Of a stretch of 64,000 nucleotides of DNA, positions 11,263-48,894 are shown one piece after another; the stretch's first letter is position 1, and the number at the start of each line of letters is the position of its first letter. The stretch lies in NCBI GenBank assembly GCA_048058875.1, contig JBLLNR010000005.1:48615-112614 (forward strand), read 5' to 3'. The notes under the pieces are model-generated. The model was not told where the DNA came from and made no database searches. It saw only the letters and a list, made by a program, of their open reading frames with translations. A program made the translations under genes and the position numbers. The DNA is from Methylotenera sp. Lineage in GTDB: Bacteria > Pseudomonadota > Gammaproteobacteria > Burkholderiales > Methylophilaceae.

Positions 11263-12282
11263 TCAATACAACCAAGTACCATCGCCTAGCAAATCGGCAT
11301 GACAGTCTTTATTGGGAACATTGCAGTTTTCCCACCAAGTATCAAGCACTTGCTGTGACCACCCAAATACATAATCCATATGTAATGAGTAACCTCCTCG
11401 ACCGCCTTTATAATTATCGCTGGCAATGCGAAGGTTTTCTGTGCCGTTTACTTTATAGTGAATTATACCCGATATATGTGGCAGTGCCTTTGGGTGTGTT
11501 GCAGGGCATCGACCATTTGAGTCATATGCCATATGCGCTTTATGACTGGGACTATCCAGATTTTCACCATCCCAACAGCTAGGGAAGTGCACGACTGCAG
11601 TTAAATCTCCTACACAATCAGGAATGTAATTTTTTCTTAATTTATATGCGACACCACCTAATTTACCGGCGTTGCATTGCCAATTGATCTTATCCCAGTT
11701 CTGTGGGTTATCCTCTGTTGCGGTATGATCGCCTGCAATCATCATTAATCCATTTGGTGGTTTAACGTCGCCCCCTTTGTAATAGAATAAAGCCCAATCA
11801 GGTTTGAGCGGAGTACCATCTTTGGTGTCAATCAAGCTCGGCAACCAATAAGATGAACGATTAGCAATACCACCCTGACAGGTGCTATTACCAGTCTTTC
11901 TTATACTGTCAGCTGTAGCGTTGAAATACGCACCTGTATTCCCAAAAAAGGTGTGGTGATGAGCAGCACCCTCCTGATTTGGGTAAACAATAAAATCATC
12001 ATTCGCCATATGGCTAGCAGCACAGTGAATGCGAAAATCTCCGCCAGAAAAACTAAAGGGATTTGGTGTAAAAACTTCTCTAGTAGGGTCTGGCACAGGT
12101 TGCACTCTTAATTCAGCATACCCTTCTGCAGGTTTCATGTTCTTAGTTGTATCCACTGCAGGCATATAGTCTTCAGTTTGCGTTGGGGCAACTGTATTTT
12201 GTGATGAGCCAACAGAGCTACACGCAGAAATGGTAACGCCAGCTATGGCAGATACTATTTTAAGTACACGGTAATTTTCCAT
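11263..12282 (-). CDS. Lipoprotein with a DUF1996-like domain
   Basis: Signal peptide plus lipobox (AGVTISAC). FRIHCAASHMANDDFIVYPNQEGAAHHHTFFGN matches the DUF1996 FR..C...DPIV.PG...H.H.F.G pattern. Confidence 0.5.
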   Translation of the reverse strand: MENYRVLKIVSAIAGVTISACSSVGSSQNTVAPTQTEDYMPAVDTTKNMKPAEGYAELRVQPVPDPTREVFTPNPFSFSGGDFRIHCAASHMANDDFIVYPNQEGAAHHHTFFGNTGAYFNATADSIRKTGNSTCQGGIANRSSYWLPSLIDTKDGTPLKPDWALFYYKGGDVKPPNGLMMIAGDHTATEDNPQNWDKINWQCNAGKLGGVAYKLRKNYIPDCVGDLTAVVHFPSCWDGENLDSPSHKAHMAYDSNGRCPATHPKALPHISGIIHYKVNGTENLRIASDNYKGGRGGYSLHMDYVFGWSQQVLDTWWENCNVPNKDCHADLLGDGTWLY

Positions 12283-12447
12283 AACTTAAGCCTTTTTATC
12301 ACACATAAAGATTAAATGAATACTATTAACCTTTGATGTGAATGTCCAGCCTCAATGGGACTAATGTACTGTTACTATTGAACTGATGTATTAGTATGTT
12401 TTGAAATTCTGCGGGTAACTCGGATGAATTTAAAACAATAATGCGCA

Positions 12448-12927
12448 CTAGCTAGTGGATAAATGTTGAATGATAGACTCTAAAACAGCATCATTAAACT
12501 GATATGGGTTAAATGAACTGAGCTTATGTTGTTGCAATATCGCCTGAATGTCAGAACCAACACCAGCATACTTCATATACCATTTGGCAAAAGATTTTTG
12601 ATGGATACGTTTATTACTTAATATCTTGATGTCAGTATGTCTAGTATCTTTTTTGAGTACATCAATCAACTCAGTGATTTCGTCAATACCGCCTTGTAGG
12701 CATTGTAGGCATTGTAGGCATTGTAGGCATTGTAGGCATTGTAGGCATTGTAGGCATTGTAGAAAATAACCGTTACCAAAGCACAAAACACCTACAAGGC
12801 GTTTATTTCTATTATTGGCTCTGGCCTTTTCCAAAATATCAGCGACTTCTGGCTCTATTTGATAAGGGTTCGCTGATAACGGAAAAGTTGCACGACTCGT
12901 ATAAACAATTTGGGTGTAATAATCCAT
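12448..12927 (-). CDS. Stand-alone BLUF (blue-light sensor using FAD) protein with an internal (CLQ)n insertion
   Basis: BLUF landmarks are present: the Tyr in IVYTSRA, GVLCFGNGYFLQ-CLQG (equivalent to FFQWLEG of AppA), DTRHTDIKIL and FAKWYM. It lies 4 bp downstream of the GGDEF-EAL gene on the same strand. Confidence 0.85.
   Translation of the reverse strand: MDYYTQIVYTSRATFPLSANPYQIEPEVADILEKARANNRNKRLVGVLCFGNGYFLQCLQCLQCLQCLQCLQCLQCLQGGIDEITELIDVLKKDTRHTDIKILSNKRIHQKSFAKWYMKYAGVGSDIQAILQQHKLSSFNPYQFNDAVLESIIQHLSTS
12694..12762 (-). repeat. Perfect 9-bp tandem repeat (TTGTAGGCA on +; TGCCTACAA = Cys-Leu-Gln on the coding strand), 7 full copies plus a 6-bp partial
   Basis: Counted directly: units start at 12694, 12703, 12712, 12721, 12730, 12739 and 12748, with a partial unit at 12757-12762. 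It is in frame and gives FLQ(CLQ)7GG. Confidence 0.95.
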
Positions 12928-12931
12928 AAGA

Positions 12932-15364
12932 TTAAATCACTCTTTCGTAAACTGGCTTTTCACCTCTTTTTAATTTATTTTGAGTAAAACACATCTTTTC
13001 TAAATCAACAGCTGATAGTGGCTTTGAAAATAGATAGCCTTGTCCATAATCACAGCCTATAGCAAATAGTAGGTTGCGCTGCTCTATTGTTTCCACACCT
13101 TCAGCAATTACTTTTAAACCAAGTTTATGTGCCATGACAATAATCGCTTCGCATAAAACAAGATCTTCAGAATAAATAGACAGGTTTTGTACAAATGACT
13201 GATCGATTTTGATGTAATCAACATCAAACTTTTTCAAGTAAGAGAGTGATGAGTAGCCTGTCCCAAAATCATCAACCGCTACTTGTATACCTTGATCCCT
13301 GAAAGCTAACAGCTTTTCACTAACCTCAGGGTTTTTATCCAGCATGAGTCCTTCTGTGATTTCAATTACCAGACTTGAACCAGAAATACCAAGCTTTTCT
13401 AGATGTTTAAACCAGCCTAGGTGTTTCTCATCTTTATTATAAAATTGCACTGGCGATTTATTGATACTGACTTGAAACTTACTATCAATTGTATTTTGCC
13501 ATTTTGCGAGCTGATCAGCCACCTTGTAAAACACCCAATTACCAATATCAACAATTAAACCAGTATCTTCTGCCACTGGGATAAAATCACCGGGACTTAC
13601 AACACCGTATTGAGGATGATCCCAGCGTAGTAAAGCTTCTGCCTTATATATTTTATTGGTCGCTAAATCAATAATAGGCTGATACATGACTCTGAATTGC
13701 TCTTCTTGTATCGCTAGACGTAGGTCTTGTGTCATCTCACGACGTTTAACTGCTGCAACTTGCATCGCTCTAGTGAAATAGCTGTAGGTGTTACGGCCTT
13801 TATTTTTTGCGTTATACATCGTTTGATCTGCATTACGGATAAGTGATTCAACATCCGTTGCATCCTCAGGAAACAATGTAATACCAATACTGGCAGAAAC
13901 ATTAGCAACTTCATGGCCCAAATTGAATGGTTTACCCAATTCAGACAAGATACGTTGCGCTACCATATCAATATTACCTATGTCGTCAAACTGACTCAAA
14001 ATAATCGTGAACTCATCACCACCAAGTCTGGCAAGGTCTCCATCATGAGAAATCGTGTCTGTTACGCGTAAACAAGCTTTTAATCTCTCACCAACTTGCT
14101 TTAATAAAACATCACCAAAGTCGTGGCCCAAACTATCATTCACTTCTTTAAAATCATCTAGGTCAAGAAACATGAGCGCAAATGAACCGCCTGCTCTCTT
14201 ACATACCTCAACCTGATTTGACAGTTTTTCATGGAACATATGCCGATTGGGCAAGCCAGTAACAGAATCAAAATTGGCTTGCCTCCACATCCATTCTTCT
14301 GCTTGTTTCTTAGCTGAAATATCAGACGCTACTGATACATAACCAGTCACTAAGCCATCAGTTCCTTTAAGTGGACTTACTTGAATAGCTACAGGTAAAA
14401 GCTTTCCATCTTTCGCCAAAAGTTTTATTTCACCCCGAAAACTATCGTGTTCTTTAACTGTTTCAAAAATTTCTGCATGGCTTGGACCAGAATCATCTTC
14501 TGGACTATCTGGTCCTAAATAAAATGGTTTACCAATCAACTCTGCAGACTTGTATCCAAATAAAGATTCGAATGCTGGGTTTACATATAGAAAACACAAG
14601 TTCTCATCATGTAACGAAATGGCTTCTTGCGTTTGGGATAGCGCTTGATCGCTTTGACGCAACTTAGAGTCACGATACTCAATTCGCGATAACATCAAAT
14701 TAAATCCATCTGTTAGTTTTCCAAGCTCATCCTCTGAAGTTTTTTCTACCCGAAGTGAGTATCGTTCTTGATCAATAATCTGACTCATAGCATTTGTTAA
14801 TGAGTCAACAGGCGCAAGCATCTGTTTGAGTATGGTGCGCAAGAACATATACCCCAGCAAGAACGCAATTATCATCCCCAATAAGTTGGTAGCTACCCTT
14901 AAGATAACACCCTGATAGACATTATCGTAATCGGCATAAACTCTAATTGTCCCAACCCGCTGGTTGTCTTGAATGATTGGCCGCTCGATAAACATCTCAT
15001 CGTATAGAGAAGTACCATGCAACCAATACTTCATATGATGCTTTTGATTGACGAATGAAACAAATAAGTCACTATTCGCATCCAACACCTCAACGCGCAA
15101 GACTGAGCTATCTGCTTGGATTGCTTGTAGTGTTTCTTTTGCCGTATCTAAATCATCAAAAATAATCGCAGATGCAATATTATGCGAAATAACATCTGCC
15201 AGTGTGACTAGGCTTTCCTTTGCTGACTCACTGGCGCTTTTAGCATCATTGATTGTAGAAATTACAAATGCAAGAAGTACAACAAGACCAGCCGTCCCAG
15301 AAACAAGCAGCATAAACTTTCTACTAATTGACCATTTAGTCAATAGGTTAAACACTGATAGCAC
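12932..15364 (-). CDS. Membrane c-di-GMP turnover protein: CHASE8-like periplasmic domain, HAMP, PAS, GGDEF, EAL
   Basis: Two TM segments flank a region with IASAIIFDDLDTAKETLQAIQADSSVLRVEVLD (CHASE8-like). PAS block: LYVNPAFESLFGYKSAELIGKPF. Intact RLGGDEF. Intact EAL set: KAEALLRW, DDFGTGYSSL, IKIDQSF, EGVET. Confidence 0.85.
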   Translation of the reverse strand: MLSVFNLLTKWSISRKFMLLVSGTAGLVVLLAFVISTINDAKSASESAKESLVTLADVISHNIASAIIFDDLDTAKETLQAIQADSSVLRVEVLDANSDLFVSFVNQKHHMKYWLHGTSLYDEMFIERPIIQDNQRVGTIRVYADYDNVYQGVILRVATNLLGMIIAFLLGYMFLRTILKQMLAPVDSLTNAMSQIIDQERYSLRVEKTSEDELGKLTDGFNLMLSRIEYRDSKLRQSDQALSQTQEAISLHDENLCFLYVNPAFESLFGYKSAELIGKPFYLGPDSPEDDSGPSHAEIFETVKEHDSFRGEIKLLAKDGKLLPVAIQVSPLKGTDGLVTGYVSVASDISAKKQAEEWMWRQANFDSVTGLPNRHMFHEKLSNQVEVCKRAGGSFALMFLDLDDFKEVNDSLGHDFGDVLLKQVGERLKACLRVTDTISHDGDLARLGGDEFTIILSQFDDIGNIDMVAQRILSELGKPFNLGHEVANVSASIGITLFPEDATDVESLIRNADQTMYNAKNKGRNTYSYFTRAMQVAAVKRREMTQDLRLAIQEEQFRVMYQPIIDLATNKIYKAEALLRWDHPQYGVVSPGDFIPVAEDTGLIVDIGNWVFYKVADQLAKWQNTIDSKFQVSINKSPVQFYNKDEKHLGWFKHLEKLGISGSSLVIEITEGLMLDKNPEVSEKLLAFRDQGIQVAVDDFGTGYSSLSYLKKFDVDYIKIDQSFVQNLSIYSEDLVLCEAIIVMAHKLGLKVIAEGVETIEQRNLLFAIGCDYGQGYLFSKPLSAVDLEKMCFTQNKLKRGEKPVYERVI

Positions 15365-15373
15365 CCCTAATCT

Positions 15374-15799
15374 CTACATTCGTTGTTGAGTACCATTGCT
15401 ATCGACTTTAGTTTTTGCATAGAGTCGCTCGCCGTCGGTTTTTAACATCGCTTTATTATAAGCCTCATTTACGACATTTCCGCCAACTTCTACTCTAGCC
15501 CTCAATAAGTTTGCATTCGAAGCTTTTTTGTAGTCATTGTATACATCCATGGCAAGTAGTTCACCTATGGGTTTAGCCACGATTATTGCTAACTCTGCGG
15601 TTGTAATCTCTATTGATAATGAGAAATTTGAAGTTCGCTTAGTTAACATCATTTTGTGTTTCGCGGGTTGATAATGTTCAGAAATAAAGAAAGCAATGAT
15701 AAGCAGTGGAGTAAGCAAGAAAATAATCCAAAGGTTCTCTAAAAACGTCCGCTTACATTTGGCAAACCATGACTCATCCTTGTTTAATATCGAACTCAT
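15374..15799 (-). CDS. Small single-pass membrane protein, unknown function
   Basis: One hydrophobic segment (LWIIFLLTPLLIIAFFI). It has a 4-bp ATGA overlap with the upstream YfiR-like gene, and its stop is 9 bp before the GGDEF-EAL start, suggesting an operon. Confidence 0.45.
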   Translation of the reverse strand: MSSILNKDESWFAKCKRTFLENLWIIFLLTPLLIIAFFISEHYQPAKHKMMLTKRTSNFSLSIEITTAELAIIVAKPIGELLAMDVYNDYKKASNANLLRARVEVGGNVVNEAYNKAMLKTDGERLYAKTKVDSNGTQQRM

Positions 15800-16338
15800 T
15801 TTAACCCCTTCACGCGTTTAGCCAACTTCAATAACTGCGAACTCATATGAAGCCCACTTGCCTTGACTACAGCTATGTCCACTTCAAAACCTACTCGATT
15901 TCCATCTCTTATTAAGCCAACCATGCCACCCTCGTTAATAAAATCTTTCCTGTCACTTACTGTGAGAATTGGTACTTTTTTAAGCTCTTTTAAAATAAGC
16001 TTTGCGTTACGCACACCTTCATTAGCAATAAATAGAATCTGACACTCTTTAAAATTGTTATTTTTTATTGCTCGGCGCAATACAATTGGTCTACCGTTCG
16101 TTAACTTGTCATACAAAGCCTCTAGAGCCCCATTTAAATTATCGTCACCAACAATGCAAAAATTAAATTTTTCATCTTGATAGGCGTGATTTGGCCAAAT
16201 CACAAATTTAGTGATGTTATAGATTAGCCCAGCCTTTACAGCGTGCTCTTTAGTCACAGCCGCTGCAATAGTAGAAGCAACGACAAGTATGCTAAATAAA
16301 ATAGTCTGTAAGTAATGGTGAATTCTTTTACTGTTCAT
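15796..16338 (-). CDS. YfiR/DUF4154-like periplasmic protein
   Basis: Signal peptide followed by VKAGLIYNITKFVIWPN, which is the DUF4154 'kaaflynfakfveWP' motif. First gene of the operon that ends with the BLUF gene. Confidence 0.6.
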   Translation of the reverse strand: MNSKRIHHYLQTILFSILVVASTIAAAVTKEHAVKAGLIYNITKFVIWPNHAYQDEKFNFCIVGDDNLNGALEALYDKLTNGRPIVLRRAIKNNNFKECQILFIANEGVRNAKLILKELKKVPILTVSDRKDFINEGGMVGLIRDGNRVGFEVDIAVVKASGLHMSSQLLKLAKRVKGLK

Positions 16339-16648
16339 TTAATTCTCAATAGAATGATGCGTACATAATCCCAGATAGCAATTTATCATCACAACAAAGA
16401 GATTAATGCTTAGAACAAAGCTGAAAAAGTACGTTATCTTTTTTGATTTTTAGAGGTGCATGTCAATAATCTGTTGAAATGCATGACCTTTATAAGAAGA
16501 GTCTGGAGTAATGTTAAGTGTGGTAAAAAGCTGTGTATGAACCAAAGCATATACACTGCCTGCTACCTAAAACGCTAACATTGATAAATAGCAATTACTG
16601 AAGCATAGCTAAGAACAGAATGTTTTAAATAAATGATGTATAACTTTT

Positions 16649-16736
16649 TGGTGCCCGGGGCCGGAATCGAACCGGCACGGCCGCAATGGCCGAGGGATTT
16701 TAAGTCCCTTGTGTCTACCAATTTCACCACCCGGGC
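16649..16736 (-). tRNA. tRNA-Leu (anticodon UAA), long variable arm
   Basis: The reverse complement, GCCCGGGTGGTGAAATTGGTAGACACAAGGGACTTAAAATCCCTCGGCCATTGCGGCCGTGCCGGTTCGATTCCGGCCCCGGGCACCA, is very close to E. coli leuZ. 88 nt. Confidence 0.88.
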
Positions 16737-16896
16737 GGGTGATTAGTTTTCTAATGAAAACGCTTAGTGCGTGCTATGTCCTTCAACGCGGGTCGTATTC
16801 TAACACCATCGCCGCATTTTTATAAGTAAAAATAGGGCTTTTTATTGTTGTTTTATGAAAAATATTACGCTTTATTAATTAGTCTATATGGATAAA

Positions 16897-16920
16897 TTAA
16901 AAAAGGAGGCCTCAGCCTCC
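16897..16920 (-). terminator. Rho-independent terminator after the TolC-OmpA gene
   Basis: GGAGGC-CTCA-GCCTCC hairpin (16905-16920), followed on the minus strand by TTTTTT. It lies 25 bp past the stop at 16945. Confidence 0.6.
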
Positions 16921-16944
16921 GATTTAAGCGATTTAACAATATGA

Positions 16945-18749
16945 TTATTTTTGTCGAATTAACTCTACTCGACGATTTTGCGCATTACCCGTTATTGGAT
17001 CATTTTCTGCGATAGGCATTGAGAAACCATATCCTTTGACTGTCATGCGTTTTTCGTCTATGCCTTTTCTGATTAGATAATCACTAACAGCTTGTGCTCG
17101 ACGTTCTGATAATCGCTGGTTATAGTCAGCATCAGAAGTATTGCGTTTATCCGTGTGCCCAGCAACCTCAACAGCAGAACTTCCCCATTCAACCAGAGTT
17201 TTATAGGCATTATCCAATACTGGGAATGACTCTGTCTTAATGATTGCACTGTTGGTTTCAAATTGCACATCAGGAATAACTTTATCTGCTAGGACTACTT
17301 TTTCTGCTTCTTTATTAGCCAACATTTTTTGATTTGCTACGCTTAGCGGTTCGGCATTAGCAACAATACTTGCCTTATCAATTTTAACCATTTCAGGCGC
17401 CACTGCCTGACAGACCGCATAGTTTTCGTTATAGTCTGCTTTACCAAGATCGGGCAAATCACCCCGCACAACTTCTAGCTTAGACAATAAGTTGCCCTCA
17501 CCTGCATAGGTTCTTGCATAAGCAGTATGCAAATCACTTTCAGTATTTGTATAGGTGCGCCTTGCTTGAAAATATTCGTTTTCTGTATCGAGTAAGTCTA
17601 GCAAGGTTCTTTGACCAATATCAAACTGCTTATGATAAGCTTCTCTTGCTTTTTCAATAGAAAGCTGATGCTGATTGCGATAAGTCAATTGTTCGGTTAG
17701 GCTAATGACATCATTGTAAGCGATGGCTACTGTTTGGCGTGTGTCAATACAAGCTTTATCTCTTAAATCATATGATCGGTTCAAGTTCTCCGCGGATTGT
17801 GCAATACCTGCCTGATCTGAAAACCCATTGAATAAATTAAATGTAGCAGTTAATTCCACCATATCAGCAGCGAGACTACTATTCCTTTCGTCAGAACTAA
17901 CATCTAAATTTTTTCTGGCTTGCAAATCCAGTCTAGGATAATACCTACCCTTCCTACCGCGCACCTCCTGTTGAGTTGCGACAATATTTTCTATTGCGGA
18001 AAGTAAGTCTGGGTTTTTTTGATAAGCAAGCTCTAATGATTTATTTGCATCTGAAGCCAAGCCTTCTGTTAAAAAGTTGACAGGTACTAAATTTTCTGGA
18101 GGCAACTCACCCGTTAACCTTTGAAAGCGTGCCGTCACGTTTTGTAAGTTGGTCATCTCTGTCAATAAGTTCGCTTCTGCTAATGCTAGACGACCACTCG
18201 CTTGTTCTAAATCAACCCTGCGTGCAATACCTGCTTGAACACGTTGCTCGATACGCTCAAATAGTTGCTTATGTACAGCATAATTACTTTCTGCATACTT
18301 TTGTAATTGTCGGAACCGTCTTACATCAACATATGCTCCTATCGTCTCTAGGCAATACGCTGCATGGCACCTTGAAGCTCATAGTACCTTACACGTGCGG
18401 CATGATCTAACCTATTGACTTCACTTGGCGTTGCAAAGCCATCGAACAACATTTGACGTAATACTAAATCAGTTTGACTATTTGGCGTTTGTGTATTGCC
18501 GATATTAGGTGTTAATCGTTCATAACTCCCAAATCGGGAAATAATATCAGCATGCGGATAGTACCCCCCTTTTACAACCTTTTGTTCTTGTAAAGCTGCT
18601 TTATAAGTGTGAAAACTGGCCTGCACTTCTGGGTTTGTCGTAATGGTTTTTTGGACAATTTCTTTTAAAGTATCAGGTACTTCTGCATAGGCAAAAGGTG
18701 TTACCAAAAGCAGTGCATACGTAATAACCTCCCTCAAGCGTTTATACAT
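16945..18749 (-). pseudogene. TolC-family T1SS outer-membrane protein with a C-terminal OmpA-like peptidoglycan-binding domain, interrupted by a single frameshift (LapE-like)
   Basis: The N-terminal ORF (18348-18749) has a signal peptide and TolC-like repeats and ends ..YYELQGAMQRIA*. The frame of ORF 16945-18165 is open upstream and reads LETIGAYVDVRRFRQLQ.. directly from the stop. Restoring one base at ~18348-18353 gives ..RIALETIGAY... The C-terminus VAGHTDKRNTSDADYNQRLSERRAQAV...NRRVEL is an OmpA_C domain. Confidence 0.7.
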
Positions 18750-19055: not shown

Positions 19056-19685
19056 TTGATGTTTTTTTGCATCATCAGCTTGTCGATAGCGACAGATTTT
19101 CAACACCTGGCAGATTTGGCAAATCAACGCTACGGTACTCAAGCAAAACAAACCATTCTTAGCTTGGAGTCTTTAATTAATGACCTTAAATCCGCACCAG
19201 AATCAGAAAAACTAAGAAAGATTAACTCATTTTTTAATTTACATATCAATTTCGTCAGCGATGAGGACAATTGGGGCGCTAAAGATTATTGGGCAACGCC
19301 ACTAGAATCAATTGGCAAGAATAAAGGTGACTGTGAAGACTACAGTATTGCTAAATATATATTTCTGCGCGAGTTAGGTATTCCAGATGAGCGTTTAAAA
19401 CTTACTTATGTTAAAGCTCGCATCGGTGGCCCAGACAGTGATCTATTTCAGGCGCACATGGTCCTTAGTTACTACGCTACACCCAATTCTGAACCTGTTA
19501 TTTTGGATAATCTTGTTTCAGAGATTCACGAAAGTTCACGTCGTGTTGATTTAAGACCTATTTTCAGCTTCAATAGTCAAGGGTTATGGACAGGCATTAG
19601 CAACAACACAAAAGGCTCATCGCTAAAATCATTATCGCGGTGGGGTGATGTTTTAACACGTATTAAAAATGATGGTATTGAGTAA
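19056..19685 (+). CDS. lapG: LapG-type periplasmic transglutaminase-like cysteine protease (peptidase C93 / DUF920)
   Basis: KGDCEDYSIAKY (catalytic Cys), AHMVLSYY (His) and VILDNL (Asp). About 200 aa, immediately upstream of a LapD-like gene. The start may be the ATG at 19059. Confidence 0.85.
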   Translation: MMFFCIISLSIATDFQHLADLANQRYGTQAKQTILSLESLINDLKSAPESEKLRKINSFFNLHINFVSDEDNWGAKDYWATPLESIGKNKGDCEDYSIAKYIFLRELGIPDERLKLTYVKARIGGPDSDLFQAHMVLSYYATPNSEPVILDNLVSEIHESSRRVDLRPIFSFNSQGLWTGISNNTKGSSLKSLSRWGDVLTRIKNDGIE

Positions 19686-19705: not shown

Positions 19706-21622
19706 ATGTCTCTTATTAAACAATTATGGTTTGCAATCATATTGATTATATCTCTAGCTTTTGGCGCTAGTTTTGTAATCAACATCATTACTAGTAAACA
19801 TTATCTGGAACAGCAGCTAGAAATGAAAAACACAGACAATGCTGTTTCGCTGGCACTGTCTATCTCGCAAATGGAAAAAGATCCTGTTGCGGTAAATTTG
19901 ATGTTGTCGGCACAGTTTGACAATGGTCATTATGAATATATCAGACTTACGGATCCAAACAAAAGAATAATGACGGAAAGAGTTAATACCGGTGAAGTGA
20001 CATCTGTTCCCAATTGGTTTAAGAATATGATTCATATCAACCCTAACCCTGGCATTGCTCAAATTCAAGACGGTTGGTCACAATATGGAGTTTTAACATT
20101 GGCAAGCGCAACTGGTTTTGCCTATCGAGACTTATGGAATGGCTCACTCGCCATGCTGATGTGGAGTACGATTATTGCACTGGCCTGTGGTATTTTTGGT
20201 TCACTTGTATTGAAGATGATTATTAGGCCTTTACATGAAATGGTAGATATGACAGAAGCGATTGGTGAAAAAAACTTTATTTCAATTAAAGAACCAAGAA
20301 CATACGAATTTCGTTCATTAGCAAAGGCACTAAATAAACTATCACAACGCATTAAGGATATGCTTAAAAACGAGTCTGAGCTTTTGGAGCAAATGCGTAT
20401 AGAGGCTAATTATGACTCTGTTACTGGCCTAATGAACCGCAAGTACTTTAGCAGTCGTGTAGCCACTTACATGGAAAATGACGACACATTCACAGAAGGA
20501 ATGCTGGTTGTGTCACACATTAATAATCTGGCTGAGATTAATGAAACACTTGGCTCTACAGCGACAGATAAAGTACTTAGGAGAATGGGGCTGGCATTGG
20601 ATGCGTATTGTAAGCAACACCCATCGCTCATCTCTGGACGTTTAACGGGAGCTGACTTTGCTGTATTTTCTAGCAACAAAGTAGACGTCAATGTTATCTG
20701 CAGTCAAGTGAAGAGTGTGTTACATGATGCGGCTGGACTAGACAGCCAGTTCAGTAATTTTGATTTGCATACGATCTCTAGTGTCGTTAGCAAATCGGAA
20801 CAACTTGATGGCCTCAAAAAACTGATTAACACTATTAAATCACAGACTAGTATTACAGAAACGGATATTTTGGCGCTGATTCAAGAAGAGGATGTTAATC
20901 GCTATGAAAATCATGATGAAACAGAGTGGAGAGCCATGCTTACGTCTGCGATTCAAGGTGGTAGGCTCACACTTGCTTCATACCCAGTCTTGTCCAATGA
21001 GCAAGAAATTATCCATTATGAATGCCCCGCTAGATTGCAGCTAGTAGAAGATGGTCCATGGGTGCCTGCAGGCGAATTTATTGCTTGGGCTACACAACTA
21101 GGCTTAATTGCACAATTAGACCGCCTAGCACTTGAGTCGGCTGTTAAATCGCTAGTCGCTGACGATTCGAAACCAATTGGTTTAAACGTATCAACAAGTG
21201 GCATGTGCGACCCAAACTATCATGCAGCCATTAGTAAACTAATGAAAACAAACACTAAAATTGCCAGCAAGCTTTGGTTTGAAGTAGCTGAGCACAGCGT
21301 TTTTCAAAACCTATCCAAGTTTGAAACATTTACGAAGCTCATTAAGTCGTTCGGTTGCAAAGTCGGTGTTGAGCATGTTGGGACGCAAATTAGTCGTCTA
21401 GGTGAACTTCATGATTTAGATTTAGATTATATAAAAGTTGATGCATCAATTATTCGTGATATCGATAAAAATCCAGGTAACAAAGCTTTCCTAAAAGGCA
21501 TTTGTCTGATTGCACACTCAATAGGGTTAATTGCAATTGCTGAAGGTGTACAAACCAAACAAGAACTTAAAGCACTGCCCACCTTGGGTATCGATGGCGC
21601 AACAGGGCCTGCTGTTAAATAA
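19706..21622 (+). CDS. lapD: LapD-type inner-membrane c-di-GMP receptor (periplasmic LapD/MoxY_N domain, HAMP, degenerate GGDEF, degenerate EAL)
   Basis: TM, periplasmic domain with a GWSQYG loop, TM, HAMP. The GGDEF site is degenerate (RLTGADFAVF) and the EAL motif is replaced by ECP (HYECPARL). Adjacent to lapG. Confidence 0.85.
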   Translation: MSLIKQLWFAIILIISLAFGASFVINIITSKHYLEQQLEMKNTDNAVSLALSISQMEKDPVAVNLMLSAQFDNGHYEYIRLTDPNKRIMTERVNTGEVTSVPNWFKNMIHINPNPGIAQIQDGWSQYGVLTLASATGFAYRDLWNGSLAMLMWSTIIALACGIFGSLVLKMIIRPLHEMVDMTEAIGEKNFISIKEPRTYEFRSLAKALNKLSQRIKDMLKNESELLEQMRIEANYDSVTGLMNRKYFSSRVATYMENDDTFTEGMLVVSHINNLAEINETLGSTATDKVLRRMGLALDAYCKQHPSLISGRLTGADFAVFSSNKVDVNVICSQVKSVLHDAAGLDSQFSNFDLHTISSVVSKSEQLDGLKKLINTIKSQTSITETDILALIQEEDVNRYENHDETEWRAMLTSAIQGGRLTLASYPVLSNEQEIIHYECPARLQLVEDGPWVPAGEFIAWATQLGLIAQLDRLALESAVKSLVADDSKPIGLNVSTSGMCDPNYHAAISKLMKTNTKIASKLWFEVAEHSVFQNLSKFETFTKLIKSFGCKVGVEHVGTQISRLGELHDLDLDYIKVDASIIRDIDKNPGNKAFLKGICLIAHSIGLIAIAEGVQTKQELKALPTLGIDGATGPAVK

Positions 21623-22156: not shown

Positions 22157-25100
22157 TTAATCTGTAATTAATTTTTGTTGCGCAATTAAGTTATTAATTA
22201 CATCAGCATCAGTAGCAAATCCAGCAGTCAAGTTTACTCCTGTAAATACTACTTGCTGCACATCGTTACTTGAAACATCGATTGTTGGAGCACCAACTGT
22301 ATTACCATTATTAAATGCACCGGTTGAGCTAACATACATAGTGGTGTTGCCGCCAGAAAACTCAAAGTGCAAATAGTTATCTAAGCTTGCTCCACTATAA
22401 TCTTCGCCTACCAACAAGTCTCTCAAATCTAGCACATCACCCCCTGCATTTGCAGCAGCAGTACCAAAATTATTAATTGTATCAACCGCTGGTGTTGCTA
22501 TTGTCCCTTGGTCAGCCAAATTCCATACAAAGGTATCAGTTGTAAAGTCATCACTACCAGCATTGCCGCCAGTCATCGTATCGTTACCTGAACCACCGAC
22601 AAGCGTATCTCTTCCTGTTCCTCCAACTAAAGTATCATTGCCAGCTTGACCATAAAGCGTGTCGTTACCAGCCTGTCCATTTAGGGTGTCGTTTCCATTG
22701 CCACCATAGAGTAAATCTTGTCCATTATTTCCGTTGAGTGTGTCGTTGCCACCCAATCCGTTTAGAACATCATCTCCTGTTGTACCATTGAGTGTATTTC
22801 CAGCATTCGTACCCTCAATCATATTTGTTGGTGCACTTACATTGATAGTAATACTCTCTGCAGCAGTAGTCGCCGTATCTCCGTTACTTATCTCTGTACT
22901 CGTCGCTGTGACTGACAAATTAATTGTGCCAGTAAATCCACTAGCGGGATAAATCTGTAAGCCATCAAGTTCTGCTTCTGTAAAGCTCCAAAGTCCACCA
23001 CCTAAGTTGGTTCCAGCAGAAAAAGTTGCTGTTAATGGAACACCAGAGATAGAGACTGTTAGCGACTCCGAGCCATCCGTATCAGTCAAACCCGCACCTA
23101 TAGCGACATCAATAGGCTGGCCATAACTATTTCCGCCTACTACAAAAACAGGTGGCGTAACTGTTATTGATGAATCTTTCCCTCCATCTCTACCATTGAG
23201 AACCATATAAGAGAACTGATATGTACCTGATAATGCTGATGTAAAGGTAAATGTGCCAGTAGCATCGGTTGCAGCACCTGCAAATTCAGATGACGTTAAT
23301 ATTTGATAGGTGATAGCGCCATTAGGATCTGTAATTGCAACTAAAACTATATCATTGAATCCACCTGTAATCTCACCAACAAGATCCTCGCCATTATCAA
23401 ATGTCCAATCAACTGATATCTGTTGACCTGCATTTAAATTCAAATTTTGCAGCGTAAAGTCACCATCATTAACGTTGACATTTCCAGGGTCATTCAAAAC
23501 ACCTGCGGTAGGATCAAATCCATCCAATGTGCCCGCAGGCAGTCCTAAAGTTGATTCCAAGTTTGCTTGTGAAATTGCTGCATTTGTGTCAGCTACTGCA
23601 GCAACTGTCGGTACAGAGTTAACAAAATCAATCACTGACTGAACAGTTAAATTAGGTGTATCCGCCACAGCCGTTACATTGATATTAAGCGTACCTGTAT
23701 CCGTTTCAGTGCCATTCGTCACAGTATAAGTAAAACTATCTGGTCCACTATAGTTAGCAGGTGGCGTATAAGTGTAAGTACCATCTGACGCGACGGTAAT
23801 AATTCCCCCTTGAGTTGTAAGGAATGTACCAACACTTCCTGGTGCAATTGTTAAACTAGAACCAAGATCATCTACATCATTTGCTAGCAAGCTTGATGGT
23901 GATAGATTATTTAAACTATCTTCTGTCACTGTCAGGCTATCTGCAATAGCATTTAAAATAACATCATCGACGTTTGTTTCATTGAGCGTTATATTGGCTG
24001 TATTTGTGTTCCCTGCTGTGTCAGTTACAGTTACACTATGTATGGTGCTGTTCGGCAAGGTTTCAAAATCATTAACATTGGCTGCAACACCAGCTGCTGT
24101 AATTGTAATATTGCCACTAGCATCAATTTGATAGAAACCATCACTACTTGTATTAGTACCTGTTGCTGTAAATGAATATCCAGCTACTGCAACATTATCA
24201 CTTGCAACAACCGTAGCAACCGTAGCGCCTACTGTTTGATTTTCAGCATAATTAAAAGCTTGAGCAGCAATAACCGGGGCCGTCGTATCAACACTGTAAC
24301 CTTCTGTATCGGTCGCTGTGCCAGGATTGCCTGCTGCATCCGTTGTCGTGATGCTCGCATCGATGGTGGTGTCAGGATCTGCCGCTAAGTCGGCGCCTGG
24401 TACATTGATGCTGAACACGCCGCCTGCAACCAAGCCTGTGTATGTATTGCCGTTCACAGTCAGTGTGACCGTGTCACCATCTTGTGCATCGCCACCCACG
24501 CTACCCGTGACCGCTACCGTGCCGCCTGCTTCTGCCGCGTTGATGATGTCATCCGCGGTGATGTTCGCATCTAAGGTAATGGTTGGTACCGGTGCCGTTG
24601 TGTCCACTGTATACGTTTGTGTATCTGTTGCACTGCCTGGATTGCCAGCAGCATCCGTTGTCGCCACACTGGCGTCTACCGTTGTATCCGGATCGGCCGC
24701 TAAGTCAGATCCTGGTACGTTGATACTGAAGTTGCCGCCCGCATCCACCGTACCAGTGAAGGTGTTGCCGTTCACCGTTAAGGTGACGGTGTCGCCTGTG
24801 TTGAATTCGCCGCCAACCGTACCGGTCACCGCAACCGGTCCGCCTGCTTCTGCTGCATTTAAAATGTTGTCTGCTGTAATCGGATCTAACGTAATCGTTG
24901 GGACCGGGGCCGTCGTATCAACACTGTAACCTTCTGTGTCGGTCGCTGTGCCAGGATTGCCTGCTGCATCCGTTGTCGTGATGCTCGCATCGATGGTGGT
25001 GTCAGGATCTGCCGCTAAGTCGGCGCCTGGTACATTGATGCTGAACACGCCGCCTGCAACCAAGCCTGTGTATGTATTGCCGTTCACAGTCAGTGTGACC

Positions 25101-28100
25101 GTGTCACCATCTTGTGCATCGCCACCCACGCTACCCGTGACCGCTACCGTGCCGCCTGCTTCTGCCGCGTTGATGATGTCATCCGCGGTGATGTTCGCAT
25201 CTAAGGTAATGGTTGGTACCGGTGCCGTTGTGTCCACTGTATACGTTTGTGTATCTGTTGCACTGCCTGGATTGCCAGCAGCATCCGTTGTCGCCACACT
25301 GGCGTCTACCGTTGTATCCGGATCGGCCGCTAAGTCAGATCCTGGTACGTTGATACTGAAGTTGCCGCCCGCATCCACCGTACCAGTGAAGGTGTTGCCG
25401 TTCACCGTTAAGGTGACGGTGTCGCCTGTGTTGAATTCGCCGCCAACCGTACCGGTCACCGCAACCGGTCCGCCTGCTTCTGCTGCATTTAAAATGTTGT
25501 CTGCTGTAATCGGATCTAACGTAATCGTTGGGACCGGGGCCGTCGTATCAACACTGTAACCTTCTGTGTCGGTCGCTGTGCCAGGATTGCCTGCTGCATC
25601 CGTTGTCGTGATGCTCGCATCGATGGTGGTGTCAGGATCTGCCGCTAAGTCGGCGCCTGGTACATTGATGCTGAACACGCCGCCTGCAACCAAGCCTGTG
25701 TATGTATTGCCGTTCACAGTCAGTGTGACCGTGTCACCATCTTGTGCATCGCCACCCACGCTACCCGTGACCGCTACCGTGCCGCCTGCTTCTGCCGCGT
25801 TGATGATGTCATCCGCGGTGATGTTCGCATCTAAGGTAATGGTTGGTACCGGTGCCGTTGTGTCCACTGTATACGTTTGTGTATCTGTTGCACTGCCTGG
25901 ATTGCCAGCAGCATCCGTTGTCGCCACACTGGCGTCTACCGTTGTATCCGGATCGGCCGCTAAGTCAGATCCTGGTACGTTGATACTGAAGTTGCCGCCC
26001 GCATCCACCGTACCAGTGAAGGTGTTGCCGTTCACCGTTAAGGTGACGGTGTCGCCTGTGTTGAATTCGCCGCCAACCGTACCGGTCACCGCAACCGGTC
26101 CGCCTGCTTCTGCTGCATTTAAAATGTTGTCTGCTGTAATCGGATCTAACGTAATCGTTGGGACCGGGGCCGTCGTATCAACACTGTAACCTTCTGTGTC
26201 GGTCGCTGTGCCAGGATTGCCTGCTGCATCCGTTGTCGTGATGCTCGCATCGATGGTGGTGTCAGGATCTGCCGCTAAGTCGGCGCCTGGTACATTGATG
26301 CTGAACACGCCGCCTGCAACCAAGCCTGTGTATGTATTGCCGTTCACAGTCAGTGTGACCGTGTCACCATCTTGTGCATCGCCACCCACGCTACCCGTGA
26401 CCGCTACCGTGCCGCCTGCTTCTGCCGCGTTGATGATGTCATCCGCGGTGATGTTCGCATCTAAGGTAATGGTTGGTACCGGTGCCGTTGTGTCCACTGT
26501 ATACGTTTGTGTATCTGTTGCACTGCCTGGATTGCCAGCAGCATCCGTTGTCGCCACACTGGCGTCTACCGTTGTATCCGGATCGGCCGCTAAGTCAGAT
26601 CCTGGTACGTTGATACTGAAGTTGCCGCCCGCATCCACCGTACCAGTGAAGGTGTTGCCGTTCACCGTTAAGGTGACGGTGTCGCCTGTGTTGAATTCGC
26701 CGCCAACCGTACCGGTCACCGCAACCGGTCCGCCTGCTTCTGCTGCATTTAAAATGTTGTCTGCTGTAATCGGATCTAACGTAATCGTTGGGACCGGGGC
26801 CGTCGTATCAACACTGTAACCTTCTGTATCGGTCGCTGTGCCAGGATTGCCTGCTGCATCCGTTGTCGTGATGCTCGCATCGATGGTGGTGTCAGGATCT
26901 GCCGCTAAGTCGGCGCCTGGTACATTGATGCTGAACACGCCGCCTGCAACCAAGCCTGTGTATGTATTGCCGTTCACAGTCAGTGTGACCGTGTCACCAT
27001 CTTGTGCATCGCCACCCACGCTACCCGTGACCGCTACCGTGCCGCCTGCTTCTGCCGCGTTGATGATGTCATCCGCGGTGATGTTCGCATCTAAGGTAAT
27101 GGTTGGTACCGGTGCCGTTGTGTCCACTGTATACGTTTGTGTATCTGTTGCACTGCCTGGATTGCCAGCAGCATCCGTTGTCGCCACACTGGCGTCTACC
27201 GTTGTATCCGGATCGGCCGCTAAGTCAGATCCTGGTACGTTGATACTGAAGTTGCCGCCCGCATCCACCGTACCAGTGAAGGTGTTGCCGTTCACCGTTA
27301 AGGTGACGGTGTCGCCTGTGTTGAATTCGCCGCCAACCGTACCGGTCACCGCAACCGGTCCGCCTGCTTCTGCTGCATTTAAAATGTTGTCTGCTGTAAT
27401 CGGATCTAACGTAATCGTTGGGACCGGGGCCGTCGTATCAACACTGTAACCTTCTGTGTCGGTCGCTGTGCCAGGATTGCCTGCTGCATCCGTTGTCGTG
27501 ATGCTCGCATCGATGGTGGTGTCAGGATCTGCCGCTAAGTCGGCGCCTGGTACATTGATGCTGAACACGCCGCCTGCAACCAAGCCTGTGTATGTATTGC
27601 CGTTCACAGTCAGTGTGACCGTGTCACCATCTTGTGCATCGCCACCCACGCTACCCGTGACCGCTACCGTGCCGCCTGCTTCTGCCGCGTTGATGATGTC
27701 ATCCGCGGTGATGTTCGCATCTAAGGTAATGGTTGGTACCGGTGCCGTTGTGTCCACTGTATACGTTTGTGTATCTGTTGCACTGCCTGGATTGCCAGCA
27801 GCATCCGTTGTCGCCACACTGGCGTCTACCGTTGTATCCGGATCGGCCGCTAAGTCAGATCCTGGTACGTTGATACTGAAGTTGCCGCCCGCATCCACCG
27901 TACCAGTGAAGGTGTTGCCGTTCACCGTTAAGGTGACGGTGTCGCCTGTGTTGAATTCGCCGCCAACCGTACCGGTCACCGCAACCGGTCCGCCTGCTTC
28001 TGCTGCATTTAAAATGTTGTCTGCTGTAATCGGATCTAACGTAATCGTTGGGACCGGGGCCGTCGTATCAACACTGTAACCTTCTGTGTCGGTCGCTGTG

Positions 28101-31100
28101 CCAGGATTGCCTGCTGCATCCGTTGTCGTGATGCTCGCATCGATGGTGGTGTCAGGATCTGCCGCTAAGTCGGCGCCTGGTACATTGATGCTGAACACGC
28201 CGCCTGCAACCAAGCCTGTGTATGTATTGCCGTTCACAGTCAGTGTGACCGTGTCACCATCTTGTGCATCGCCACCCACGCTACCCGTGACCGCTACCGT
28301 GCCGCCTGCTTCTGCCGCGTTGATGATGTCATCCGCGGTGATGTTCGCATCTAAGGTAATGGTTGGTACCGGTGCCGTTGTGTCCACTGTATACGTTTGT
28401 GTATCTGTTGCACTGCCTGGATTGCCAGCAGCATCCGTTGTCGCCACACTGGCGTCTACCGTTGTATCCGGATCGGCCGCTAAGTCAGATCCTGGTACGT
28501 TGATACTGAAGTTGCCGCCCGCATCCACCGTACCAGTGAAGGTGTTGCCGTTCACCGTTAAGGTGACGGTGTCGCCTGTGTTGAATTCGCCGCCAACCGT
28601 ACCGGTCACCGCAACCGGTCCGCCTGCTTCTGCTGCATTTAAAATGTTGTCTGCTGTAATCGGATCTAACGTAATCGTTGGGACCGGGGCCGTCGTATCA
28701 ACACTGTAACCTTCTGTATCGGTCGCTGTGCCAGGATTGCCTGCTGCATCCGTTGTCGTGATGCTCGCATCGATGGTGGTGTCAGGATCTGCCGCTAAGT
28801 CGGCGCCTGGTACATTGATGCTGAACACGCCGCCTGCAACCAAGCCTGTGTATGTATTGCCGTTCACAGTCAGTGTGACCGTGTCACCATCTTGTGCATC
28901 GCCACCCACGCTACCCGTGACCGCTACCGTGCCGCCTGCTTCTGCCGCGTTGATGATGTCATCCGCGGTGATGTTCGCATCTAAGGTAATGGTTGGTACC
29001 GGTGCCGTTGTGTCCACTGTATACGTTTGTGTATCTGTTGCACTGCCTGGATTGCCAGCAGCATCCGTTGTCGCCACACTGGCGTCTACCGTTGTATCCG
29101 GATCTGCCGCTAAGTCAGATCCTGGTACGTTGATACTGAAGTTGCCGCCCGCATCCACCGTACCAGTGAAGGTGTTGCCGTTCACCGTTAAGGTGACGGT
29201 GTCGCCTGTGTTGAATTCGCCGCCAACCGTACCGGTCACCGCAACCGGTCCGCCTGCTTCTGCTGCATTTAAAATGTTGTCTGCTGTAATCGGATCTAAC
29301 GTAATCGTTGGGACCGGGGCCGTCGTATCAACACTGTAACCTTCTGTGTCGGTCGCTGTGCCAGGATTGCCTGCTGCATCCGTTGTCGTGATGCTCGCAT
29401 CGATGGTGGTGTCAGGATCTGCCGCTAAGTCGGCGCCTGGTACATTGATGCTGAACACGCCGCCTGCAACCAAGCCTGTGTATGTATTGCCGTTCACAGT
29501 CAGTGTAACCGTGTCACCATCTTGTGCATCGCCACCCACGCTACCCGTGACCGCTACCGTGCCGCCTGCTTCTGCCGCGTTGATGATGTCATCCGCGGTG
29601 ATGTTCGCATCTAAGGTAATGGTTGGTACCGGTGCCGTTGTGTCCACTGTATACGTTTGTGTATCTGTTGCACTGCCTGGATTGCCAGCAGCATCCGTTG
29701 TCGCCACACTGGCGTCTACCGTTGTATCCGGATCGGCCGCTAAGTCAGATCCTGGTACGTTGATACTGAAGTTGCCGCCCGCATCCACCGTACCAGTGAA
29801 GGTGTTGCCGTTCACCGTTAAGGTGACGGTGTCGCCTGTGTTGAATTCGCCGCCAACCGTACCGGTCACCGCAACCGGTCCGCCTGCTTCTGCTGCATTT
29901 AAAATGTTGTCTGCTGTAATCGGATCTAACGTAATCGTTGGGACCGGGGCCGTCGTATCAACACTGTAACCTTCTGTGTCGGTCGCTGTGCCAGGATTGC
30001 CTGCTGCATCCGTTGTCGTGATGCTCGCATCGATGGTGGTGTCAGGATCTGCCGCTAAGTCGGCGCCTGGTACATTGATGCTGAACACGCCGCCTGCAAC
30101 CAAGCCTGTGTATGTATTGCCGTTCACAGTCAGTGTGACCGTGTCACCATCTTGTGCATCGCCACCCACGCTACCCGTGACCGCTACCGTGCCGCCTGCT
30201 TCTGCCGCGTTGATGATGTCATCCGCGGTGATGTTCGCATCTAAGGTAATGGTTGGTACCGGTGCCGTTGTGTCCACTGTATACGTTTGTGTATCTGTTG
30301 CACTGCCTGGATTGCCAGCAGCATCCGTTGTCGCCACACTGGCGTCTACCGTTGTATCCGGATCGGCCGCTAAGTCAGATCCTGGTACGTTGATACTGAA
30401 GTTGCCGCCCGCATCCACCGTACCAGTGAAGGTGTTGCCGTTCACCGTTAAGGTGACGGTGTCGCCTGTGTTGAATTCGCCGCCAACCGTACCGGTCACC
30501 GCAACCGGTCCGCCTGCTTCTGCTGCATTTAAAATGTTGTCTGCTGTAATCGGATCTAACGTAATCGTTGGGACCGGGGCCGTCGTATCAACACTGTAAC
30601 CTTCTGTATCGGTCGCTGTGCCAGGATTGCCTGCTGCATCCGTTGTCGTGATGCTCGCATCGATGGTGGTGTCAGGATCTGCCGCTAAGTCGGCGCCTGG
30701 TACATTGATGCTGAACACGCCGCCTGCAACCAAGCCTGTGTATGTATTGCCGTTCACAGTCAGTGTGACCGTGTCACCATCTTGTGCATCGCCACCCACG
30801 CTACCCGTGACCGCTACCGTGCCGCCTGCTTCTGCCGCGTTGATGATGTCATCCGCGGTGATGTTCGCATCTAAGGTAATGGTTGGTACCGGTGCCGTTG
30901 TGTCCACTGTATACGTTTGTGTATCTGTTGCACTGCCTGGATTGCCAGCAGCATCCGTTGTCGCCACACTGGCGTCTACCGTTGTATCCGGATCGGCCGC
31001 TAAGTCAGATCCTGGTACGTTGATACTGAAGTTGCCGCCCGCATCCACCGTACCAGTGAAGGTGTTGCCGTTCACCGTTAAGGTGACGGTGTCGCCTGTG

Positions 31101-33313: not shown

Positions 33314-33453
33314 AATGCTTCCTAAATTTAATTTAAGGGCATACAAATACCCGTATAGTAGTAATTAAATCGATTTTTCCACTTGATGTATATTGGCCTG
33401 TAGGACAATATTGATGAATGTTGCTAGATAAAGATTGATGAAATCTGGAACAG

Positions 33454-34176
33454 CTATGCTACATATTCAAGTTTTTTTTTATGATTATTCTTTTCTGAAT
33501 CTCTTAATGTATCTTGCTTCGGGTGAAGCGCCTGAACATCAGCATTGATGGTAATTTTTGCATTATCATCTTTTTCATTAAGGACCAATGCAAGTTGTAA
33601 CCTATCCTTAACTCCAAGCTTTTCTAGCGAAGATGATATATGTGCTTTAACTGTGCGCTCTGTAATATTGAGCAAGCGAGCAATTTCTTTATTGCTACAT
33701 CCTTTAGCCGCTTCTAATGCTACTTGTTGTTCACGATTTGTCAGTAGGCCCAGTGCCTTCTCTACATTAGATGAAGCAGTGTGAATGACATCTTTTGTTG
33801 ATCCGATCAATGTTTTTAACAAATCATTGCCCAACCATATGCCACCGTGCATTACCACTGTTTTAAGTTCTTTAAGCATACTTGGGGCACTGTAAGCATG
33901 ACAATACCCTACTGCGCCTCGACGCATAATAGTTAAAGCATCTGGCTCATTAGGCGTATTGGCTAATACCACAACCTTAGAGGCTTTGAATTTCTTATCA
34001 ATACTGGTCATGATATTTTCAAGCCAACTGACATTGTTTGAATTAGCATGAACCCAAAACACAACAGGCTCGTTTACTGGAACAGTAACCAAAGACGCCG
34101 ACACCATTGCCTTTGGAAAAGCTTGTTTCCAGTTATCTAGCATATTGCCATTGGGGCATAAAAATATGTCGCGCAT
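33454..34176 (-). CDS. LuxR-type HTH regulator with a degenerate receiver-like N-domain (VpsT/CsgD-like)
   Basis: C-terminal LTNREQQVALEAAKGCSNKEIARLLNITERTVKAHISSSLEKLGV is a LuxR/FixJ HTH. The N-domain has REC-like beta4-alpha5 (VVVLANTPNEPDALTIMRRGAVGYCH) but no acceptor Asp (FWVHAN). HGGIWLGNDLL aligns with the VpsT GEMWLTRKL segment. The start overlaps the lapC-like stop. Confidence 0.65.
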   Translation of the reverse strand: MRDIFLCPNGNMLDNWKQAFPKAMVSASLVTVPVNEPVVFWVHANSNNVSWLENIMTSIDKKFKASKVVVLANTPNEPDALTIMRRGAVGYCHAYSAPSMLKELKTVVMHGGIWLGNDLLKTLIGSTKDVIHTASSNVEKALGLLTNREQQVALEAAKGCSNKEIARLLNITERTVKAHISSSLEKLGVKDRLQLALVLNEKDDNAKITINADVQALHPKQDTLRDSEKNNHKKKLEYVA

Positions 34177-45112: not shown

Positions 45113-45228
45113 GCTTGGCAGTGACCTACTTTCGCATGCGAAGAGCATACTATCATTGGCGCAGGTTCGTTTCACGGCCCTGTTCGAGATGGGAAGGGGT
45201 GGGTCCAAACCGCTATTGCCACCAAGCA
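45113..45228 (-). rRNA. rrf: 5S rRNA
   Basis: The reverse complement, TGCTTGGTGGCAATAGCGGTTTGGACCCACCCCTTCCCATCTCGAACAGGGCCGTGAAACG..AGTAGGTCACTGCCAAGC, matches the bacterial 5S consensus. Confidence 0.9.
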
Positions 45229-45285
45229 TAAACGGTAATGTTACCTTGCTTAACGGTTTTTCCTGTTAAGCAAGCTTTAACAAAT

Positions 45286-45300
45286 TGGAAGAAGTAAAGA
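45286..45300 (-). other. 3' half of the putative 23S processing (RNase III) stem
   Basis: TGGAAGAAGTAAAGA here is the exact reverse complement of TCTTTACTTCTTCCA at 48690-48704. The two flank the 23S gene. Confidence 0.55.
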
Positions 45301-45411
45301 TGCTTTAATGTTAATTAAAGTATGGGTTTTGATTGGTTGTTTCGAATTTTTTACTTTAGAACCAACCTTCTCTTAAATTTTCATCTAGGATGTTATTTAA
45401 GTCTTAAGGTT

Positions 45412-48410
<2,999 letters not shown>

Positions 48411-48689: not shown

Positions 48690-48704
48690 TTCCATTTTGT
48701 TAAA
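48690..48704 (-). other. 5' half of the putative 23S processing (RNase III) stem
   Basis: Exact complement of 45286-45300, located in the tRNA-Ala/23S spacer. Confidence 0.55.
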
Positions 48705-48879: not shown

Positions 48880-48894
48880 ATTTAAGGCGATATC

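Follow-up and report, generated by a model that had tools for sequence, protein, structure and literature searches.

A probable recent repeat expansion perturbing the BLUF sensor of a predicted c-di-GMP and adhesion module in Methylotenera

How does a compact light sensor come to carry seven copies of a three-residue repeat at its photoactive glutamine, and what is likely to remain of the sensor once it does? The question is raised by a short BLUF photoreceptor gene (positions 12448-12927, minus strand) within the 64-kb stretch of DNA analyzed here, which we call the window. A first-pass annotation of this stretch had offered three explanations without choosing among them: a contingency-type tuning switch, a recently inactivated sensor, or a mis-assembled simple repeat. 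From the evidence outlined below, we think it fairly probable that the array is a recent, strain-specific and potentially reversible slipped-strand expansion, and that it perturbs the BLUF sensor of a c-di-GMP and adhesion module.

A repeat array in the photoactive strand of a short BLUF protein

A perfect 9-bp tandem array of 7.67 copies occupies positions 12694-12762 on the minus strand. Tandem Repeats Finder (TRF) describes it with period 9, 7.7 copies, 100% matches, no indels and a score of 138, and the same feature emerges from the sequence itself, from a shuffle control and as a gap relative to two conspecific contigs, L056 and L057. The copies lie head-to-tail, each reading TTGTAGGCA (plus strand) or TGCCTACAA (minus strand); in the latter orientation the array consists of CTACAA followed by seven TGCCTACAA units, and encodes L56-Q57-(CLQ)7. 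Read in frame, the BLUF gene gives G-N-G-Y-F-L56-Q57-(C-L-Q)x7-G79-G80, and the seven perfect Cys-Leu-Gln copies after FLQ described in the first-pass annotation are thereby confirmed (GNGYF-LQ-(CLQ)7-GG). By TRF, no other short-period repeat in the 64 kb comes close to it in strength, and no second microsatellite comparable to it was found in the window. The 18-mer TGCCTACAATGCCTACAA, which corresponds to two units, occurs six times, always within the tract, and never in 100 dinucleotide-preserving shuffles. The tract is no product of chance. Two further reading frames are open across it—a plus-strand ORF of 47 aa with CRH repeats and a minus-strand frame of 41 aa with NAY repeats—and both were rejected as genes, being by-products of the repeat within the BLUF gene.

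The 159-aa product (141 aa in all close relatives) is recognizable as a short BLUF photoreceptor by Pfam, PDB searching, alignment and AF2/Foldseek comparison. The Pfam BLUF domain (PF04940) scores 78.4 bits (cut-off 25), with the tract splitting the match into two stretches, and a PDB sequence search with the window protein retrieves TePixD (1x0p), BlsA (6w6z) and AppA. In a 19-sequence alignment, Y9, N39, Q57/Q75, W116 and M118 fall in invariant columns, which completes the conserved photocycle set of Tyr in β1, Asn in α1, Gln in β3, and Trp and Met in β5. The best Foldseek matches to the AF2 model of the window protein are likewise short BLUF proteins, namely TePixD, PixD, BlsA and BlrB (TM 0.73/0.82). 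With PixD/Slr1694, TePixD/Tll0078, BlsA and BlrB the protein shares its size (141 aa minus the insert), its plan of a BLUF core with two C-terminal helices, and the conserved Tyr, Gln, Trp and Met; unlike them, it has an 18-residue (CLQ)6 insert in β3. No second, compensating BLUF gene was found in the window.

Where precisely does the array fall? In PDB sequence alignments, Q57 of the first register and Q75 of the last register both align with Q51 of BlsA, and the two registers (GYFLQCLQ and LQCLQGG) both align with FFQCLEG of BlsA and FLQTLEG of TePixD. BlsA Q51 is the analog of AppA Q63 and Slr1694 Q50 (PMC6695109). Since both registers align with the β3 strands of BlsA and TePixD, the residue corresponding to BlsA Q51, Slr1694 Q50 and AppA Q63 is either Q57 or Q75. 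For a 1-copy homolog, AF2 places β2 at residues 45-51 and β3 at 54-61 (YFLQCLQG), with helices at 107-115 and 128-140 forming the C-terminal helical cap. By alignment and modeling, then, the tract is an in-frame 18-residue addition within BLUF β3, at the conserved Gln. The earlier proposal that GYFLQCLQG is the strand of the photoactive Gln (Gln63 in AppA) is supported by the PDB alignments, and its mapping of about 18 added residues to the flavin-binding β-sheet, at the critical Gln, proves structurally correct when set against the PDB alignments, the homologs and the AF2 model.

Distribution and origin of the expansion

A search of 5.8 billion protein clusters yielded 18 homologs at 41-96% identity. 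Every one of them carries a single LQCLQG (LQCLEG, FQCLQG or FQCLEG in some), and none has an indel between helix α1 and the RH motif. The prediction that a single copy would read GYFLQCLQG is accordingly borne out, with exactly one [LF]QCL[QE]G in 18/18 homologs. The first-pass annotation had also contemplated an insert fixed across orthologs; this was checked, and all orthologs are single-copy. The exact 159-aa protein is absent from about 15 billion protein sequences, and the exact LapD, GGDEF-EAL (with either of two candidate starts) and DUF1996 proteins of the window are likewise absent from the protein collection. The closest named relatives are Methylophilaceae MAGs, and the G+C content of the window is about 40%.

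Closer relatives come from metagenomes, two of them contigs with about 99% nucleotide identity. L056, a locus on a 1.09-Mb contig from a JGI metagenome, shares 98.8-99.6% identity with the window across 16 kb and so belongs to the same species; apart from a 54-bp gap, the two BLUF genes are 100% identical. A second conspecific metagenome contig, L057, also has one copy (1.67) at the BLUF site, and one further contig encodes the BLUF protein sequence of L056. The window array exceeds this ancestral state of 1.67 copies by 54 bp, or 18 aa. Among 241 million metagenome records scanned for 2.67 or more copies there were 31 matches, none with BLUF flanks. Intermediate alleles were thus found neither in relatives nor in the metagenome scan, and the states seen are 1.67 copies (L056, L057) and 7.67 copies (window).

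An allele unique to the window sequence is also what an assembly or sequencing artefact would leave, the true genome then having 1.67 copies, and a 1-bp deletion that splits a neighboring gene (see below) could hint at consensus errors. Yet the 69-bp tract is shorter than ordinary reads, six perfect 9-bp units match no known error mode, and the differences from L056 over the other 16 kb are confined to substitutions and three 1-bp indels. The contig also includes a complete rRNA operon (45113-51096, minus strand, with tRNA-Met upstream), comprising 16S (49082-50617), a spacer with tRNA-Ile and tRNA-Ala, 23S (45414-48409) and 5S (45113-45226), all on the minus strand; finding it within an unbroken 64 kb points to a long-read or finished assembly. 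Because the contig resolves both this operon and roughly 8 kb of tandem repeats with a 630-bp unit in an adhesin gene, mis-assembly is unlikely, and we hold an artefact of any kind to be highly improbable.

If the array is real, its beginnings can be read from the conspecific contigs. The L056/L057 site is TTT CTA CAA TGC CTA CAA GGC, a 6-bp direct repeat with a 3-bp spacer, amounting to 1.67 copies. In the ortholog comparison, this 6+3+6 seed (CTACAA-TGC-CTACAA) is present only in L056, L057 and the window; the orthologs L001-L004 have other synonymous codons at the site (e.g., CTG CAA TGT CTT GAG or CTC CAA TGC TTG CAA), and none of the four has a DNA repeat there. With the seed limited to one species and more distant orthologs using other codons, the slippage substrate is therefore a codon-choice accident. 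An accidental proto-repeat, supplied by the LQCLQ codons of β3, would have been expanded by slipped-strand mispairing from 1.67 to 7.67 copies, and the six added units would place a cysteine-rich 18-residue (CLQ)6 insert in the central strand that bears the photoactive Gln. The perfect copies, together with the identity of the rest of the gene to L056, point to a very recent event, although the substitution statistic alone is weak: 0 substitutions were seen in 426 bp where about 2.5 are expected at a flank divergence of about 0.6%, a difference that is weakly significant. Among the explanations first put forward, a recently inactivated sensor fits best, the insert being unique to this genome, absent in a relative of about 99% identity, and located at a site that is nearly indel-free across the family.

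The same array could instead be viewed as an evolved contingency (phase-variable) locus, in which selection keeps copy number variable and light input to adhesion control is on, off or intermediate in different subpopulations. An array of more than seven perfect copies is slippage-prone, the 9-bp unit keeps the frame, the regulatory neighborhood of surface attachment is a typical target of phase variation, and two allelic states exist within one species. Against this, the two states come without intermediates, no relative has an array, the seed is a species-specific codon coincidence, and no other comparable microsatellite accompanies it in the 64 kb. In addition, in-frame 9-bp units cannot give a classical frameshift ON/OFF switch, and our literature search found no report of a tandem repeat or of phase variation in a BLUF domain. 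What the locus offers is a long perfect tract in a gene; a tract of variable copy number across strains or related species is what it lacks. An evolved contingency locus is in our judgment improbable, and as an evolved device the tuning switch of the first-pass annotation is not supported. It would be a similarly long shot for the array to be a working reversible switch, with (CLQ)n slippage creating light-responsive, light-blind or locked 'lit' subpopulations that differ in c-di-GMP and Lap attachment; if true, this would be the first phase-variable light sensor, in a free-living methylotroph.

The recent expansion that we favor is an in-frame coding variable-number tandem repeat (VNTR), a known type in an unusual place. 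The general concept of slipped-strand VNTRs and in-frame repeat variation has been reviewed (PMC3899988), and repeat copy-number phase variation is described in M. tuberculosis (PMC12817950). In common with in-frame coding VNTRs (MLVA loci), the array is perfect and built of a short unit divisible by 3, its copy number varies between near-identical genomes, and the same slippage origin and reversibility are expected. Typical VNTR loci, by contrast, carry arrays in every strain and lie in linker or surface regions that tolerate them, whereas this array is found in one genome only, expanded from a seed of 1.67 copies, and is located in the central β-strand of a compact sensor. Because the unit is 9 bp and the copies are perfect, the lesion is non-polar and frame-preserving, and contraction can revert it. 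The tract is now intrinsically slippage-prone and should be unstable, contraction restoring the wild type. In essence, the locus behaves as a VNTR, though the data do not support its having evolved as a switch.

The metagenome scan yielded a separate observation. Arrays of 3-6 copies of TGCCTACAA also occur in 31 unrelated metagenome contigs (L058-L088), where they are mostly intergenic. Many come from a single lake data set (Ga01941xx), and the arrays often lie 3' of TTAAA(A/T) and 5' of TGTGCTTCCCCC. They look like an intergenic repeat family of another organism.

Predicted consequences for the photoreceptor

To what extent does nature vary the length of this part of the domain? We surveyed 178 BLUF domains from 167 proteins, comprising the 150 best 50%-identity cluster representatives and our first set. 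The β2-turn-β3 segment spans 18 residues in 172 of the 178 domains, 19 in two, 20 in three, and 16 in one, the last a truncated sequence. The largest natural insert in the survey is thus +2 residues, and the extra residues always lie in the hairpin turn, never within β3. The window protein has 36 residues across the same segment, against a maximum of 20 elsewhere, and so departs from an uninterrupted BLUF core with the canonical β2-turn-β3 length.

Structure prediction registers the insert as well. The mean pLDDT of the best AF2 model is 93.8 for one copy, built on the closest 1-copy homolog, and 75.9 for seven copies, a drop in confidence that is no measure of protein stability; the five-model ranges are 93.8-86.2 and 75.9-45.4, and pTM values are 0.87 and 0.73, respectively. 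In the model with seven copies, pLDDT is below 50 for residues 53-70 and drops to about 63 for residues 11-30 (β1-α1). The model builds β3 from the last register, a choice that follows MAFFT gap placement in the input alignment and so was not used to decide the β3 register.

Tandem duplication preserves both junctions of the array, so a near-native β3 is possible from either end, with the rest looped out. The insert might on that basis be tolerated: the first or last register would serve as β3, the 18 residues would form a solvent-exposed loop, and flavin binding and signaling would be kept, with kinetics or redox sensitivity perhaps altered by six extra cysteines and the expansion neutral or mildly modulatory. 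The intact ORF, the presence of all photocycle residues, and the retention of a complete native-like β3 in either register are consistent with this, as is an AF2 model that keeps the BLUF core (Foldseek TM 0.73/0.82 to TePixD/BlsA) and renders residues 53-70 as a low-confidence loop. In the homolog alignment, however, either register separates invariant residues: a last-register β3 parts the invariant F55 and the G-x-G hairpin from the strand, and a first-register β3 displaces the invariant G after LQ by 18 residues. Natural BLUF domains, moreover, gain at most two residues here and only in the turn, and the loss of AF2 confidence extends to the neighboring core, with four of five models at or below 67.6. 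Even point changes at the equivalent Gln are consequential, as BlsA Q51A is insoluble and mutating the corresponding Gln locks Slr1694 and AppA in a pseudo-lit state (PMC6695109). We consider a tolerated insert unlikely.

From the length-constrained segment, the AF2 drop, the split invariant residues and the Gln mutant data, we infer a null or state-locked sensor. On these sequence and modeling grounds, the likeliest outcome is that the insert destroys the sensor or fixes its signaling state; with the AF2 core still built and the array looped out, residual BLUF function is possible. If the expansion is real, a microsatellite born of a two-codon coincidence disrupts a sensory protein within one species-level lineage. 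It also supplies a natural allele pair—one versus seven copies in otherwise identical genes—that could test β-strand tolerance in BLUF. Taken by itself, the repeat is probably an isolated lesion whose general importance is limited.

A Yfi-like cluster beside a Lap-type adhesion system

What would such a lesion disconnect? The BLUF gene is the last of a conserved cluster on the minus strand. The first gene encodes a YfiR/HmsC-like periplasmic protein (15796-16338; DUF4154, Pfam PF13689, 140 bits) and the third a YfiN-like membrane protein (12932-15364) with CHASE8, HAMP, PAS, GGDEF and EAL domains by Pfam and intact GGDEF and EAL motifs in its translation. The YfiN-like protein is 810 aa as read; its true start is probably 15313, as in L056, giving probably 793 aa, and 4 nt separate its stop codon from the start of the BLUF gene. 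Between these two genes, a 141-aa ORF without a Pfam match (15374-15799) shares 4 nt with the gene upstream and is also conserved in L056; it is a possible additional component of the Yfi-like module. Across 12100-17000, a scan found promoter-like sites to be fewer than in shuffles, and the region downstream of the BLUF gene showed no convincing terminator.

In 6/6 orthologous loci (L001-L004, L056 and L057), the GGDEF-EAL gene has the BLUF gene as its immediate downstream neighbor, an adjacency conserved down to 44% BLUF and 56% partner identity. The YfiN-like GGDEF-EAL protein is likely, by analogy, the signaling partner of the BLUF protein. The precedent is PapB: this short BLUF protein forms a complex with the EAL protein PapA and controls it, regulating biofilm under blue light (PMC8846402). 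As in the PapB-PapA system of Rhodopseudomonas palustris, a stand-alone BLUF gene, here encoding a C-terminal helical cap, is adjacent to and co-oriented with the gene of an EAL protein, the linkage is conserved, and the predicted output is c-di-GMP and biofilm. PapA, on the other hand, is a solo EAL phosphodiesterase, and the candidate partner here is a membrane CHASE8-HAMP-PAS-GGDEF-EAL protein. Judging by gene order and the PapB-PapA analogy, the BLUF protein probably serves, in its normal form, to relay blue light to the GGDEF-EAL enzyme. The BLUF protein would convey the signal by protein-protein contact, as PapB does to PapA, and the YfiN-like enzyme would then tune c-di-GMP and, through it, LapD/LapG, adhesin retention and surface attachment. 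The expansion would uncouple this GGDEF-EAL/c-di-GMP input from light.

The candidate machinery for attachment is encoded next door. Past a tRNA-Leu gene come, successively, a gene for an outer-membrane protein with OEP and OmpA domains, then LapG-like and LapD-like genes, an adhesin gene, a LuxR-type regulator gene, and genes for an HlyD/C39-ABC exporter. The LapG-like protease (19056-19685, plus strand) matches Pfam Peptidase_C93, and the LapD-like c-di-GMP receptor (19706-21622, plus strand) combines LapD_MoxY_N, HAMP, GGDEF and EAL domains. The 3729-aa product of 22157-33346 (minus strand) is, by its sequence, a LapA-like giant adhesin: Pfam finds RTX nonapeptide repeats and Ig-like domains, and the ORF contains at least 13 near-identical internal repeats with a period of 630 bp. 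The G+C content of this gene is about 55%, against about 40% for its surroundings. Downstream of the adhesin, Pfam identifies the LuxR-type regulator, the HlyD-type fusion protein and the C39-ABC exporter (33454-37756, minus strand). By Pfam, then, the neighborhood brings together a LapD-type receptor, a LapG protease (C93), an RTX adhesin and an ABC/MFP/OMP exporter, with the OMP gene interrupted. The adhesin and exporter are the probable downstream output of c-di-GMP signaling.

The interrupted OEP-OmpA gene (16945-18749, minus strand) is intact in L056, where it encodes 601 aa. In the window, a 1-bp deletion at about 18351 (TTGCGCTAG -> TTGCCTAG, not in a homopolymer) creates a TAG stop and splits it into ORFs of 133 and 406 aa. 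As a second lesion in the same c-di-GMP and adhesion neighborhood, it could reflect either real pathway decay or a consensus error.

Both halves of this neighborhood resemble c-di-GMP modules of Pseudomonas, YfiBNR (TpbB) and LapADG (PMC2837407, PMC4359373). Shared with these modules, and encoded side by side, are a YfiR-like DUF4154 protein, a CHASE8-HAMP-GGDEF protein and an OmpA-domain outer-membrane protein, together with LapD, LapG, type I secretion and an RTX adhesin. The differences are that the YfiN-like protein has additional PAS and EAL domains and a BLUF partner gene, and that OmpA is fused to an OEP (TolC-like) domain in a gene that is frameshifted in the window genome. On gene order and analogy, blue light is probably fed by the BLUF protein into c-di-GMP control of adhesion. 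A BLUF gene behind a YfiN-like GGDEF-EAL gene and beside a Lap system in Methylophilaceae predicts blue-light control of attachment, and our literature search found no work on BLUF in this family. The conserved BLUF/YfiN-like/Lap arrangement is a more general lead than the repeat.

Two smaller observations concern the same gene families. Within the LapD-like gene, positions 20500-20925 show 43 differences from L056 in about 425 bp, or about 10% compared with about 1% or less elsewhere, and the gene has a compensating pair of 1-bp indels at 20740 and 20745; the segment may be a recombination tract or a fast-evolving part of the gene. Separately, paralogous short BLUF genes at about 35-40% identity to the query (L007, L012, L014, L016, L025, L028, L029, L034, L037, L047 and L048) occur in MAGs of Methylotenera, Methylophilaceae and other Burkholderiales/Betaproteobacteria, frequently within about 1 kb of a gene that matches only the EAL part of the GGDEF-EAL query. 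These BLUF/EAL neighbors are PapB/PapA-like pairs, and they appear to be undescribed for the group.
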